DNA of 64,000 nucleotides from positions 310,001-374,000 of the forward strand of contig ML978125.1 in assembly GCA_010015805.1 (NCBI GenBank), in the 5' to 3' direction. The stretch is from Rhizodiscina lignyota (lineage: Eukaryota). Shown here one piece after another: positions 1,053 through 59,543 of this stretch (positions are counted from its first letter, which is position 1; every line of letters starts with the position of its first letter). The notes beneath the pieces were generated by a model, which saw only the letters and a list, made by a program, of their open reading frames with translations, was not told the origin of the DNA and searched no databases. The position numbers were made by a program, and so were the translations under genes.

Positions 1053-1606
1053 ACCTCGATTCTTCGCTGATCCAACAAATACTTGTGAGAGAGGTGATTG
1101 GAACGCGCGCAAATGTGGAGGACATATGTCACCATATTAAACACCAGCTTTTTGAAAAAGGAATATCAAATATCTAAGATTATGAATCTGCGGGATGTCG
1201 CACAGCTATATTTCAAATTGCGTTCCGCGCCCGCGATCCGCCTAATACGACGATTTCCAAAAAGAAAAGCACTACAATTCCAAAGATTGAGTTAACAGCT
1301 CGTTAATGGACATGGTAAATCAAATGGGTTCGCCGCATCACGGGTTCGCAAGTATTTTATATGCCTTTCTTATTTCCAGTTCTCCTTCAAATGGCCATTG
1401 CACGTATTCATACTAGCAGAGATTTCGGTATGGAGCTTCTTGTCCTCTGCACGACAGTATTACGTCTCGAATAACTCGTACTAAGAATAGAGACACACCA
1501 AATCCATTTTCATCATAAAGGTAGCCACGGCGCGGCCATCGTCAAAGCACCATGCCCAGATCGCCACAATCCAACACAACACGCAGTAAGCCAACAAACT
1601 CTGTCA

Positions 1607-4600
1607 CTACACACTCTCGCTCCCATCATCCTCAGGAATATCTTCGAACTCGACAATACGTGACCTCAGTCCTCCCCCACGTCCGGCGCTCACAGGAATA
1701 TTACTCGATCCGTCCTTCCGTCCATGTACAGGCGTCATACTTCCTTTCCCTCTGGACCCAGCTGTCCCACGAGCAGAGAACCCCTGAGCTCTGAGTTTCC
1801 GCTCAAAAGGGGTGACGCCGGGCGTGTCCGGGCCAGCCAGTCCTCCACCTGTAGCAGCAGGTGGCGCCGTGCGTGCCCCCACGCGTCCGAACATGCCAGA
1901 TGTATCGATCGTGGATTGTCCCGGCGTTCCAGGGCCAGTAACACCGCCCGCACTCAGCGCAAGAAGCCGTTCTCGAGCTTTACTTCTGGCAGTGTTGCGT
2001 CTGGAGGGAGTGCGGAGATATCCCGGGAGAGGAGTAGATGTAATCAAGCCCTCCGCATCTCCGAGATCAAAGTTACGCTGCAGGTCGCCGAGCTGGAGGG
2101 CGGACTCGTCGAAAGCGGTCCATTCTTCTGCGCGAGCCATGGAGGCGTCGCTTGGAATGTGCGTGTCATCGGCCCCACCAGTGCCTTCATAGTCAAGGGC
2201 CGTGAGATCGTTTCTGCCATCGAGTCCTGTAATGTTGCCGATACCACCACCTTGATAATCGTCTTCATCGCCGCCGAACTCTGCAGCACTTTCAGGATCA
2301 GTGCGCTGGAGTCGGGCAATGGCGGCTCGCTCGGCCCAGTACCGCATCATGCTTCTGAGATGGCTGTGCCAATGCTTATCTTTGAGTGCCAGGGCGTTTT
2401 GCGCGAGTCTCCGCACTTGGAAGAGTCGCCATCCCAGTTTCGTGAAGAGCTTCTGTGCAGTAATAGCGCTCATTTCTGCTTTGAAGTTCAGGGCTTTGGC
2501 ATCCAATTGTTCAAACCTTCCATGTGTGGCCACAAGTTTGGTGACCATCACTCTGAGGAGATGAGTTTGGCGGTACGAGACCGCTTGAGCAGACCACTGT
2601 GTGATTTGCTGGCTCTTCTGGCGCCAGTCCGCAAACGCCTTGATAGCAGCTCCCATCGTAATGTTCTCTGCTCTCTCGACCGCGTTTCTCTCCATAGCTC
2701 GGATGGTATCAGCTTTGGATCGCCATCGGCTGACCATCTCCCGGACAAGATTCATCTTGCAACGTCTTCGCACAGTAACATAAGCTTCTCGCCTGCGCTG
2801 CTTTTGGCTCTGCTCTGTCGCACCATGCCAAAGTTTGATGGTGTTGGTAGTCAGGATATAAAAGCGAGCGGCAGAGGCCTGCGATTCCATGGCCATGATA
2901 TCTTGTGTGCGACTATGCCAACGGTTGAATCGCTTAGGTATGGCATGCGAGCGGAATACGTCAATAGCCAACGCTTCGTCTTCTCGGTAAGCATCAAAAC
3001 GTCCCCGCCAGCGACTGAACGTGTCTCGAAGTATGATGTGCGTTTGTGCCTGCTGAAAATTCGAGACAGCTTGCTGTAACGCTGAAGCTCGCTCGCGGGT
3101 TCGAGTCGACCAATGTTCTGTCCATTTATGCAGCAACTTGTAATTCCGGACTCTTGCGAACATGGAAGCCTTGGATGCGATCGAGAGTCTGTATAGAGCT
3201 TCTATGGTGACTCGGTCATCGATGCGGCGGGAGAGCCACGAGCAGCGGAGTTGATCGTCCCATGAGGTGAGTGCATTACGAAGGAGACGAAGTCGATTAA
3301 CCTCTGCGGCTTGCTGAGATTGACGAGCCCTAAGATGCCATTTTCGAAGAGCAGAGAGTACGATCCGACTATCGACACCACCAGAGATTCGATGATAGGC
3401 TGGCGCAAGCTTTGCCTGGATCGAGAAAGTTGTTAGAGTGTTAGATAGGAGCTTTCGCCTTCGGAAAGCCTCTGCTGTATCCTCATCGCGGCGAACCACT
3501 TCCAATCGCTGCTGCCAGTGCTCCAGAATCCGCCTTTGTTCATCGTGCACTCTCATTTGCTCAACCAGGCCTTCTCTCTGCTTCATCTTCCAAACGATGT
3601 ACCTCCATCTGCGGAAGAAATTCCTTCTGATCCGATCTTCCGCAAAGTACCTTGCAGAATGCTCATGGAATTCCCAGAACCATTTCCGGTAGACGCGAGA
3701 CACTAGATTCTCCTCATAACACCCAATCGCCAGGTCGTCGTTTTTCAACACAGCAGCCGTTCGCCGCTTCCAGACACCAAAGAACTTATTCAGTCGTTGT
3801 CTTCGGACCTTGAGCTCATTTACAACTGTAACATCTCTCCAGGCATTGAAGAATTTGAATCGAAGCATGTGGCGCCTTGCTGTTGCAGTTCTTGCCACGC
3901 GCTCTCTCGCAGTGACTGCCCAGTGCTCAAAAGCCTTTTCCATTATATGCAAATTGTAGAGTCGCTGCACCCTTCTCTCTTCACGAGCATGTGCGCGTTC
4001 CACGGCCCTAGCCTCTTGCTTATCCCGAAAAGTAAAGTAGAGGCTTCCAAGAGCAGCCCGGAAAACTGACCTCCTGTCGAACGCTTCCGCCATGCGTGAC
4101 AACTTCTCGTGCTGATCCGATAGCGAGCGCGCTTGATCACGCCAGTGCCAGAACCATCGGCGTTGTAGCCGAATATTGCTATGATACTGGAAGGTGTCCA
4201 CATCGGCCAACATTTGCGTCTCTGATGGGTGGTATTGGATCTCTGGAGGAAGTGCCTTTCTGTCAATTGACGCTTGTGATGATCGTCGTGATCTCGAGGC
4301 ATTCCGCGAAGTTCTGCTGCGGTTGCTCGCAGATTCGGCTCTTCTGATAACCTGTATACTGCCCTGGCTAGAAATCGACGCACTTCGTGGCCTGCGTTGT
4401 GAGTGAAGATTATCGGACACTGATCTGTTGTTCACCCGGCCTCTAATCGGGAGCTGTTCCAAGAGGTGACGACGGTCTCCGATTGACCGTCTGCGCTCAC
4501 CTGAAGGATCGCTCGCTCGACTGGACGCGCGCCTGTGGCCAGTTGGTCGCTCAGGTCGCGGAGATGAATCGTCCAGATTCTCTCCCGTCTTCCACGCGCC

Positions 4601-56138: not shown

Positions 56139-57064
56139 ATGGCTCCAAAGATCGCCATCGTCTACGTAAGTCTTCTCTCCAGCTTCGACAGTGGTCAATT
56201 GCAAAGCGGCAGCTCGCCAGCCTGCAATTGGCCGCTCTCAGCCCACTTTCGCGAGAGCGAGTCCGACCGTGCTCCGGCACCGCAATCGTGTCCACAACAG
56301 TTTCTGACTTGAAATTCATCATAGTATTCCATGTACGGCCACATCGCCAAGCTTGCCGAGGCCGAGAAGAAGGGCATCGAGGCTGCCGGTGGTACCGCTG
56401 ACCTCTTCCAGTGCGTTTCCCCCACCCGGCACATACACGAGCCCCTCCACACCGAGCCAATTCACCACCGGAAACAAGCTGACAAATACTTCAAAACAGA
56501 ATCGAGGAGACCCTCCCTCAAGAGGTGCTCGACAAGATGCACGCCCCGCCCAAGTCGGGCGTGACCATCCTCAGCGACCCCACCACGCTCGAGTCCTACG
56601 ACGGCTTCCTCTTCGGCATCCCGACGCGTTACGGCAACATGCCGGCGCAGTGGAAGACCTTCTGGGACAAGACGGGCGGCCAGTGGCAGACGGGCGCCTT
56701 CTGGGGCAAGTACGCGGGCGTCTTCGTGTCGACCGCCTCGCTCGGTGGTGGCCAGGAGAGCACCGTCCTCGCCACCATGTCTACCCTGACCCACCACGGC
56801 CTCATCTACGTCCCGCTCGGCTACAAGACGACGTTCGGCCTGATGGTCGACCTGTCCGCGGCTAGGGGTGGTTCGCCTTGGGGCGCTGGTACCTTCGCTG
56901 TACGTCCTCAATTGATTCCTAAACATTGAGAGAGAAAATCATACTAACCAAAGGTGGAACAGGGCCCAACCGGCGCGCGCCAGCCATCCGACGCAGAGCT
57001 CCAGATCGCCGAGGAACAGGGCAAGGCCTTCTACAGCCACCTCTCCAAGGTCAACTTCGCCTGA
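56139..57064 (+). CDS. PST2: Flavodoxin-like NAD(P)H:quinone oxidoreductase (WrbA/Pst2/Ycp4 family), 4 exons
   Basis: MAPKIAIVY|YSMYGHI…, GIPTRYGN, FWDKTGGQW, STASLGGGQEST and GGSPWGAGTFA|GPTGARQPS…QGKAF…KVNFA, then TGA at 57062-57064. Codon bias is very strong. Confidence 0.93.
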
Positions 57065-57265
57065 CTGCATGGTAGTGGCCAGGAGGCCACGACGAAAGGG
57101 GATGGTGAGGCAAAGGGCACACAGCAACAAGCAAAAACATCTACAACACCAGGCACATCTCAGCCAGCAGCTCAGCAGACGACGACCACCCGCGTTCCGG
57201 AACAGAAGGAAGGCGATGACAAGGAGGGTCCGTGCGGTCTGCCTGCCAAGTGCTCGATATTATAA
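57065..57265 (+). other. Cryptic in-frame C-terminal extension ending in CaaX (CSIL); candidate readthrough segment
   Basis: After TGA CTG there are 66 sense codons, LHGSGQEATTKGDGEAKGTQQQAKTSTTPGTSQPAAQQTTTTRVPEQKEGDDKEGPCGLPAKCSIL, then TAA at 57263-57265. Confidence 0.7.
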
Positions 57266-58028
57266 TCACGAGAACACACTGAGCTGAAAAAAAAGACCAT
57301 GATGATAATTGCTTGTTTTTGATTAAAGTGCATCCTTTGTTTATACCTTTTCGTTGAGCCGCCTGATACCATGGGAGCTATAGTGGGGGGAGGGGGTAGA
57401 CTTGCATTTGCATAAGCGGGGATGTGTGCAACGAGCACGGGAGAGAAGAGATACCGTACATGAGTAATGGGGGGTATGCGTTGCTATGTGTTATCGCAGA
57501 ATGCAGACACCTTAAAGGGGTAGTAGCTAGTTCCGCTTGTAGAACTGACCTAAATCCAATCATATTCACCAGACTTGCATGAAAGAAGTAACTAGTGCTG
57601 CATGTGGTGAATGCATGAGTTGTCCATTCGCAGTATTTGCAGCTGCTGCTATGTATTACATTGAAAACGAACGCCAGTGCAAGTAACAAAACGTATTCAA
57701 TGCTGAGAAACAAGACAAGATCCCCACGCACGCTATGCTATGATGCTTGCCAATAGTCGACCAGAGCAAGGCCATCGAAAGCCAGGAGGGCTGAGGCCAA
57801 AAAGCATCTCTTGCCCATATACCTTGCAACGCCGACGCTAGCATAGACGCTTGAACCAAAGCTTTTTAAACCATTTTCGAAAACATTTCGTGACAGACGT
57901 TTGTGACGCGTGAGATGATGAACCGCCAGAAGGAAATCGAATCAACGCCGAGCCAAGAGTGGGAGAGTGCAATATCAAAGGTCCAGCCTAGCGTCATACT
58001 TCATTAATCGTTAATAACCCGAGCCTCT

Positions 58029-59543
58029 TCATTCCTCAAGCTTGAACCACCCTGCACCAACGCCTCTAAGGAACTCTTCCTCATTAAGCTGCTCGAATGC
58101 CTCTTCCTCTTCCTCCAGCTCTTTTCCATACAATCCGGTGCTTCCATACGGACCCTTCCTGCTTGGTGCCCGCTCGTTTGGCCACTGTCCGCCGGATGGA
58201 AGATATGTCGTGTTAAACACGCCGTGGACAGACGAAAATCCAGGCTCGAATATGAGGTCCGCGAAGAACAGTTCGATGTACAGCTCTGCAGGGCGGATAG
58301 ACTTTGCGTGCGAGGTGATGAGGCCACGAGCTGTGGAGAGGACGGAGCGCAGTCCTGCCTCCGAAGCCTCCCGGGAATACTTGACGGGCAGATTGCAGAG
58401 ATGCGCAGCACGGACCTGGCAGTCGCCGTACCAGTGGACGTTCGGGTTGGAGAAAAGTGAAGCGCACATTGAAGGGACCGAGATGGAAAGACTCTCCAGC
58501 TTCGGGCAAGACGCGAGAATGTCGCAGATGTGATGCTCCGAAGACGGGAGGTAACCTGGATGTGGATGGAAGAAGCCGTCCTGCGATCGCGGAGAGTGGT
58601 CGAGAACACGGAGAGTTTGCTGCGACGCCTCGACGATCGCCATGACACCCTGGATGGAGATGGTCGACAGGCATGTGATGTGGAACTCTTCGAGGTTTGT
58701 CGCGGTCCGAGCGATGGCAAGCAGGTCGGCGTCGGTGACTGGGAGAGTCGCGCTGTCGCCGATGAGCTTGAGCCGGCGAAGGGTGCTGAAGTCCACGGTG
58801 GCGAGTGGGTGCAGGTTCATGAAGTTCTTGCGATCCTCTCGCTGCTTGTCGTTGAGGTCGACAGCCTGCAATTCGAGCGAGTGGAGCTGATTTCCCGTCG
58901 TGCTGACGAGAAGTCGCTGAAGATCAGATGCAGGCAATCGGCGGATCACAGTGGACGGCAAGCTGGCGTAGCGAAGATTTGTGCAGCTGCGGATGATTGA
59001 ACTAATATCCGCATCAGTATCCACAGTGTGGAAGCCATTGAGCCAGAGTCGTCGGATGTTAGTGGCGACGTTGGGATATTTACGAAGAAAGGCGGCAGTC
59101 TTGCGGAGCCCGACGAACGGGTCTCTGTAGACGTATGCGCCAGTTCTGTCCTCAGCAATCTCGTAGAGCCTGTACTGGCTCTGCTTCTGAGGCAGGTTTG
59201 CCCATCTTTCGCCGCCTCGCCACCTCCTGAGGTAGAGGTTCTTGAGCGAGTAGCCCAGCGCCCAGTCGTGCCAGTATGCACACACTTGGCGGAGTGGCGT
59301 CGCAGCATCCCATCGCACCACATCCTGAACACTGTGTTAGTGATAGTCTTCATCAAGCATCACCAAAATACATACTGGAGTGAGCATGCCATTGACGTAT
59401 TTCTGAGTTTTGGCCTTCTGAGGGAAAGGCATGGGCGCCTGGCTCAGGCCGTATGTGAAGGAAACGCCATCCTCCTTGTTGAGGACGGCGGCCTCTTCCA
59501 AAATGTTATCGAGAATTTCACGTGGGAGGTCGTTGATGATCAT
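58029..59543 (-). CDS. F-box-like / RNI-like leucine-rich conserved fungal protein, 2 exons
   Basis: F-box-like start MIINDLPREILDNIL, intron at ~59328-59376, then LRQVC..W.DWAL and LRR-like segments (IRRLWL, CTNLRY, TNLEEFH, CPKLESLSI). Confidence 0.75.

Follow-up and report, generated by a model that had tools for sequence, protein, structure and literature searches.

Readthrough of a UGA stop codon that is followed by CU allows one gene to specify two products, and this UGA-CU core has been defined experimentally in Ustilago maydis and in human cells, with A at position +6 and G at position +7 raising the level of readthrough (PMC4207609, PMC4359377). UGA CUA G is reported to be the strongest form in human cells, where the readthrough of LDHBx reaches 1.6% (PMC4359377). 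Peroxisomal isoforms generated in this manner, such as Tpi1, Art1 and Rpe1 of U. maydis and LDHBx and MDH1x of humans (PMC4207609, PMC4359377), are among the closest described counterparts of the locus reported here, which is located in a window of 64,000 nucleotides from the Dothideomycete Rhizodiscina lignyota (GenBank assembly GCA_010015805.1, contig ML978125.1, positions 310,001 to 374,000 of the forward strand; the window is this whole stretch, and positions are counted from its first letter). In this window a flavodoxin-like NAD(P)H:quinone oxidoreductase gene of the WrbA/Pst2 type ends in TGA followed by CTG, and behind this stop an in-frame extension leads to a second stop and closes on a CaaX box. 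With the peroxisomal isoforms, as described in the two reports, the locus shares a UGA followed by CU, a conserved in-frame extension with a C-terminal targeting signal, two predicted locations for a redox enzyme of metabolism that a single gene encodes, and the occurrence of the signal inside the normal open reading frame (ORF) in some lineages. [quoted passage not shown] The mechanism therefore belongs to a known class, functional readthrough at UGA-CU(A), while its payload, a lipid-anchor box instead of PTS1, is new for that class; the authors of the UGA-CU study had themselves speculated on further functions (PMC4207609). Our reading, to which we give a probability of roughly 0.7, is that throughout the Pezizomycotina a single Pst2/WrbA-type gene uses conserved UGA-CU readthrough to produce a minor isoform that would be prenylated at its CaaX box and probably palmitoylated, which would make it a one-gene equivalent of yeast Ycp4 and, among conserved cellular cases of readthrough, the first whose payload is a lipid anchor in place of a peroxisomal or nuclear signal.

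Ycp4 is the nearest parallel with regard to the protein itself. In Candida albicans it is extended at the C-terminus by some 90 residues ending in CAAX, and flavodoxin-like proteins of this species have been reported at the plasma membrane (PMC4556627), while the Ycp4 of yeast appears in a list of substrates of Erf2, the Ras palmitoyltransferase (PMC5364179). The Ycp4-type proteins of the Saccharomycotina, of which P0078 (Huiozyma naganishii) and P0125 are examples, combine the same core with a hydrophilic extension rich in Lys, Glu, Ala and Thr, a CaaX end and likely membrane tethering. However, the Ycp4 tail is hard-coded in a separate paralogue, whereas the tail described here follows the stop of the single copy observed at the locus; furthermore, the yeast sequences end in CC-a-a-X (CCTVM in P0078 and CCTLM in P0125) and the present ones in GPCGLPxKC-a-a-X, and the likeness of the two tails is not established as homology. 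As the extension lies behind a TGA and not inside the annotated ORF, the long isoform would work like Ycp4 without being encoded like it.

Other systems in which bypass of a stop adds a functional extension resemble the locus in part. In the large delta antigen of hepatitis delta virus the bypass adds a prenylated CXXX extension and changes the function of the protein, but there a viral gene is concerned, UAG is edited to UIG by ADAR and the farnesylated tail comprises 19 amino acids (PMC3185554). Stop-loss editing in Sordariomycetes, as described for DBF2, similarly provides a conserved disordered C-terminal extension through stop bypass in filamentous ascomycetes; there the edited stop is UAG, and the DBF2 tail is presented as destabilising the protein and not as targeting it (PMC13123824). 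CaaX-type signals in readthrough extensions have also been put forward for a Drosophila gene (one extension; PMC3840789) and for Arabidopsis MT1C (10.1101/2021.11.09.467898), in both instances as motif predictions in a single species. A first-pass annotation of the window, made from its letters alone, had regarded readthrough that appends a prenylation signal as undescribed. For the present case this is borne out by our literature search, which found no description of a readthrough-appended CaaX in this gene (subscription journals being outside its coverage), while as a general statement it has to yield to the predicted prenylation signals (PMC3840789, 10.1101/2021.11.09.467898) and to the tail of hepatitis delta virus (PMC3185554).

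A conserved coding extension behind the UGA

The coding part of the gene (56140..57061, on the plus strand, as are all parts of the gene and its extension) comprises four exons, located at 56140-56166, 56325-56410, 56500-56899 and 56963-57061, with donors GTAAGT, GTGCGT and GTACGT following the first three. When joined, the exons give 612 nucleotides in frame, which specify a short form of 204 amino acids with the final residues KVNFA and identical to P0001, named flavoprotein WrbA of Rhizodiscina lignyota at NCBI. A flavodoxin-like flavin mononucleotide (FMN) reductase domain was recognised through a match of the Pfam family FMN_red on exon 3 (E 1.3e-8; 35 bits against a cut-off of 24), and P0001 carries precomputed assignments to PF03358 and PF00258. 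In agreement with the first-pass annotation, KVNFA is directly followed by TGA at 57062-64 and by CTG as the next codon, so that the leaky context, UGA then CU, occupies 57062..57067. Also as claimed, the frame continues to a TAA at 57263-65, although its length had been given as CTG followed by 66 codons; the 66 open codons (57065-57262) include CTG, so that the correct count is CTG plus 65.

The extension consists of a readthrough linker of 50 codons (57065..57214), an open frame which is hydrophilic, rich in Thr, Gln, Gly, Lys and Ala and of a length that differs between species, and a 16-codon tail, DDKEGPCGLPAKCSIL (57215..57262), which is recognised as conserved from an alignment of ten sequences and from its codon-position pattern. 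Written with its stop the extension ends in DKEGPCGLPAKCSIL-TAA, and the C-terminal end of the peptide reads ...EGDDKEGPCGLPAKCSIL. The presence of a CaaX box, CSIL (57251-57262, with its Cys codon at 57251-53), and of a second Cys six residues before the CaaX Cys (57233-35) was confirmed, and the second stop, TAA (57263..57265), directly follows the box. The extension alone matched no Pfam family at E up to 1. As the frame remains open in 9% of mononucleotide shuffles of this extension, the open frame of the window alone constitutes weak evidence; that the extension is more than chance is concluded from the comparison with other fungi, which shows its conservation.

The starting point for this comparison was a protein search with the last exon and the extension, which led to P0002, an annotated protein of 237 amino acids from the Leotiomycete Hyaloscypha finlandica whose final 15 residues are identical to those of the window's extension; a word search with the Hyaloscypha tail returned the query's own cluster only (2 candidates). 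Metagenome contigs were scanned with the tails of the window and of P0002, which gave 237 pattern matches, 15 of them confirmed by tblastn and representing 14 loci, and the WrbA/Pst2 core was present directly upstream of the tail at all 13 loci having upstream DNA. Ten distinct sequences were usable, these being the window, L001, L002 (=L003), L004, L005, L007, L008, L009 (=L010), L011 (=L012) and L013. L003 and L010 have the same junction and extension as L002 and L009, respectively, and each pair was counted once; L011 and L012, which differ by one synonymous base in the displayed stretch, were likewise counted once. L014 was left out as it starts inside the tail.

The first-pass annotation had proposed beforehand that orthologues be inspected for TGA-CTR, for preservation of the frame and for a terminal CaaX, and the ten sequences agree with one another to a degree that leaves the proposal well supported. 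The first stop is TGA in 10/10 and the two bases behind it are CT in every sequence (CTA-G in five, CTC in three and CTG in two); the extension, of 56-95 codons, is in frame and open in all ten, and its end always conforms to C-x-I-[L/M]. A stop is found directly after the fourth CaaX residue, the Cys thus being fourth from the C-terminus, in each of the ten. The second stop, in contrast, varies (TAA in six, TGA in three and TAG in one), and it is this combination, TGA-CT invariant and the second stop free to vary, that marks UGA-CU readthrough. The other two frames of the extension contain 0-6 stops each, and the chance of a single extension staying open upon shuffling is 0.02-0.11. All ten extensions end according to the consensus KEGPCGLP[A/S]KC-[S/T/E]-I-[L/M], in which K, E, G, P, C, G, L, P, K, C and I are invariant across the alignment; the a2 residue of the CaaX box is Ile throughout and X is Leu in nine sequences and Met in one. 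Residues immediately behind the stop are also kept as protein, with an invariant Leu followed mostly by Asp or Pro and then by Gly.

Protein-level purifying selection acts on the extension, as is evident from the manner in which it changes. Pairwise differences in the last 16 codons number 102, 27 and 327 at codon positions 1, 2 and 3, respectively, and the Gly, Pro and Cys codons of the tail vary freely while the residues remain unchanged. The ratio of nonsynonymous to synonymous substitution rates (dN/dS; Nei-Gojobori, nine pairs) is 0.17-0.63 for the whole extension and, in eight of the nine pairs, 0.29-0.59 for the linker only. Compared to the 150 nucleotides past the second stop, the extension was more conserved in 7/7 pairs (69-92% versus 58-82%). 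Together with the comparative test, the protein-coding substitution pattern of the tail supports the interpretation, made originally from the window, of a CaaX box that is appended by readthrough.

The same pattern bears on whether the tail could be a relic of a long form truncated by a nonsense mutation, or else a downstream ORF that is translated independently. Yeasts do have hard-coded long forms (P0078 of Huiozyma naganishii), and metagenome gene callers often report the tail as a separate short ORF, as would be consistent with these two possibilities. A relic would decay, however, whereas the tail is under purifying selection in all sampled lineages and the TGA is itself conserved; neither an ATG nor any other start is conserved in the interval from the stop to the tail, conservation of Leu sets in at the very first codon behind the TGA, and the V, L or M residues with which the short ORFs begin are gene-caller starts at differing positions. 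Both forms of this explanation are consequently considered extremely improbable.

In L009 (1340-1405), and also in L010, an extra intron ends 12 nucleotides before the TGA, which leaves to the last exon just four codons of the core (RVNF), together with the leaky stop and the entire extension.

Transcripts and the possible routes past the stop

The RNA data consist of assembled metatranscriptome contigs, and the run concerned (X1) covered a small share (0.08) and gave two contigs, the uncovered parts not being evidence. A second run, X2, resembles the DNA source of the window and carries no information on RNA. A 256-nucleotide contig of a close relative is colinear with 57009-57279, that is, across the stop and the whole extension, and differs from the window by five substitutions (four listed) and one deletion. 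All four listed substitutions lie in the linker; three are synonymous at third positions, and the other replaces Thr by Ser. The deletion removes 15 nucleotides (57149-57163, PGTSQ) between two ACATCT repeats and represents a codon-aligned length polymorphism of the linker. In the second contig intron 3 is spliced out, and the contig crosses 57042-57077 and runs on, although it may or may not retain the TGA itself. Polyadenylation ahead of 57265, which the first-pass annotation had named as a finding that would speak against its proposal, was also checked: one contig extends past 57265, and polyadenylation in that transcript therefore does not occur before the end of the extension.

The colinearity of the transcripts is relevant to alternative splicing, by which a small intron starting just upstream of the stop would remove it and join the core to a tail exon, and which we judge to be quite improbable. 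Support for such splicing comes from Hyaloscypha finlandica and Hyaloscypha sp. PMI_1271, whose long forms as annotated (P0002 and P0006) pass from ...HILK to SETAAV... and skip VSF-stop-LDGSSASGTK, as well as from the matching DNA of L011, in which this jump corresponds to a 42-nucleotide in-frame GT..AG stretch; these two observations count against readthrough in the balance drawn further below. The window also has a GT at 57050, several in-frame AGs and, at 57061-65, a CTGAC that is branch-site-like. However, a stop-removing in-frame donor fitting GTNNGY is absent in 9/10 sequences, whereas the three real introns of the window all fit this pattern. The exception is L013, with a GTGCGT donor that overlaps the stop, and L007 offers one candidate donor only, GTCGCT, 21 nucleotides upstream of the stop. 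Moreover, splicing needs neither a tail in the frame of the stop nor an open interval between the two, and both hold in 10/10; the residues right after the stop are conserved as protein; the RNA contigs are colinear over the stop; and an intron-free transcript-sized ORF from the same Hyaloscypha cluster (P0003) ends in ...KVSF. It is common for gene predictors to lengthen an ORF by placing a short intron over a stop, and the Hyaloscypha 42-nucleotide 'intron' is read here as such a predictor's device. The initial preference for readthrough over splicing is thus sustained by the lack of a conserved donor and by the colinear RNA contigs.

A micro-intron in the window, from the GT at 57050 to the CAG at 57080-82, was considered and rejected: its donor would be GTCAAC, no such donor is conserved, and its 33 nucleotides are too short for a spliceosomal intron. 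The P0002 model is in addition without the residues YSMYGHIQ near its N-terminus, which are present in P0003 and P0006, and this gene model is probably wrong at both ends.

The same predicted protein would also result from adenosine-to-inosine (A-to-I) editing of the mRNA from UGA to UGG (Trp), in which case the long form would be made at certain developmental stages only. In Sordariomycetes, editing that abolishes a stop and thereby lengthens the protein at its C-terminus is documented, Fusarium graminearum having 403 such genes, but it is described as biased to UAG, which is read as UIG (PMC13123824). Here the stop is TGA in 10/10 and never TAG, and the bases conserved behind it are the CU of the readthrough motif. 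Documented editing of this kind takes place at the sexual stage and in Sordariomycetes, whereas the named sequences found here belong to three other classes. The RNA contig covering 57064 shows no A-to-G change at this position, albeit that a minority variant would not show in a contig. On these grounds editing is regarded as very improbable. Decoding of the UGA as selenocysteine is excluded, as a search of 56900-57900 returned 0 matches to a selenocysteine insertion sequence (SECIS) or any other Rfam family at E up to 1, and as fungi are described as being without the selenocysteine machinery (PMC4207609).

A number of further observations weigh against UGA-CU readthrough as the explanation. 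The context in the window is TGA-CTG-C and not the optimal CTA-G. An alignment fold of the ten sequences gave 0 conserved pairs after the stop as regards conserved RNA structure; a local hairpin of the window, GTGGCC-AGGA-GGCCAC (57075..57090), with a perfect stem of 6 base pairs and a tetraloop, which starts 11 nucleotides past the leaky stop (z-score -1.97 for the fold of 57062-57180), may belong to the feature and is not conserved. The GC content at third codon positions is 0.53 in the window's extension versus 0.86 in the main coding sequence, a codon bias unlike that of the core being expected if the extension is rarely translated. In one low-divergence pair the linker-only dN/dS is 1.36. 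At L006, two inverted Hyaloscypha-like gene copies (1400-3030) both have their tails out of frame while retaining TGA-CTAGAT; this locus was left out of the counts and treated as error-ridden because single-base indels are scattered throughout, core exons included, and because of the inverted duplicate, and it looks like an assembly or sequencing artefact and not like biology. As regards the sample, the loci were found via the tail motif, which places lineages that have lost the tail outside it, and the ten sequences are related, so that 10/10 does not amount to ten independent events. Finally, assembled metatranscriptome contigs drop rare isoforms, and one of the two RNA contigs could be carried-over DNA.

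Predicted properties of the long isoform

With these points taken into account, the existence of a readthrough isoform with a functional CaaX tail is considered highly probable from the sequence comparison. In the mechanism that we propose, most ribosomes would stop at the UGA at 57062-64 and release the soluble enzyme of 204 amino acids, while at a minority of ribosomes a near-cognate tRNA would decode the UGA in its UGA-CU context and translation would continue for 66 further codons. The product would be a long isoform of 271 amino acids with a flexible hydrophilic linker and the end ...KEGPCGLPAKCSIL. Its terminal CaaX box would be prenylated. Geranylgeranyltransferase I prefers Leu at the X position and farnesyltransferase prefers Met, Ser or Gln, so that geranylgeranylation would be predicted for CSIL and farnesylation for those relatives with Met, Ser or Gln. 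Palmitoylation is likely at the invariant Cys that lies six residues upstream, after the example of Ras and yeast Ycp4, and this Cys, with its Lys-rich surroundings, is by analogy similar to the second membrane signal found in Ras. Owing to a prenylated CaaX box and a likely palmitoylated upstream Cys, the long isoform would be tethered to membranes, the location of quinone substrates, and it is probably best viewed as a membrane-tethered quinone reductase on a flexible linker of 50-90 residues. As the enzyme is oligomeric, a readthrough of a few percent might suffice to tether whole complexes, and it is plausible that mixed oligomers would let a small readthrough fraction anchor more enzyme than its own share. 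Our confidence in the specific lipids and in this oligomer model is lower than that in the isoform itself.

If true, the proposal would represent a non-peroxisomal use of readthrough, namely a switch by which an antioxidant quinone reductase changes from soluble to membrane-anchored, and it would explain how this enzyme could still be placed at membranes in filamentous ascomycetes without an annotated Ycp4-type long form.

Occurrence of the tail in protein sets

A profile composed of the last exon, a W at the position of the stop and the tail was compared to 1.84 billion representative proteins, and at E up to 0.001 it matched 124 representatives, with GPCG in 45, a CxxX end in 47 and both in 44. 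The remaining 79 of the 124 match the last exon of the core only and are therefore uninformative on the tail. Tail-bearing sequences make up at least 44 protein clusters at 50% identity. Most of the tail-bearing representatives are short orphan ORFs from metagenome gene callers, which points to a systematic annotation gap, as public protein sets hold most tails in this form. Among ten representatives that were looked up, the named sources were Variospora aurantia, a Lecanoromycete, Coniosporium uncinatum and the yeast Huiozyma naganishii; the named sequences span Dothideomycetes, Leotiomycetes and Lecanoromycetes, and the extension is conserved in many Pezizomycotina. Outside the ten aligned sequences the a2 residue is I or V, and X may be L, M, S, Q, V or A.

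In nine of the 22 representative proteins that were read, W-L is present exactly at the junction. When read with TGA as W, L004 is the same as one of these nine, P0009, whose W is therefore a TGA read under another code; from the sequences, the W of the other eight would be explained in the same way.

Some representatives depart from this arrangement. In the annotated proteins P0012 (Variospora aurantia) and P0014 (Coniosporium uncinatum) the core continues into the GPCGLP tail and no W marks the junction, with ...KAH-DGGED in P0012 as compared to ...KAHA-W-LDG in P0007; the long form may be hard-coded in these lineages, or else the gene models may be artefactual. P0020 (...VNF-R-IEGP) and P0016 (...NSS-R-LDGP) have R where others have a stop or W, which may reflect CGA replacing TGA, and the end of P0020 is disrupted (CKNSLHHIILRH). 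P0010 has a variant tail, ...SEGPCGCTVA, which lacks the LPxK spacer and has its cysteines at a distance of two residues only.

Downstream in the window, the minus strand carries an open frame of 435 codons (58029-59336) that runs convergently towards the flavoprotein gene's 3' end.

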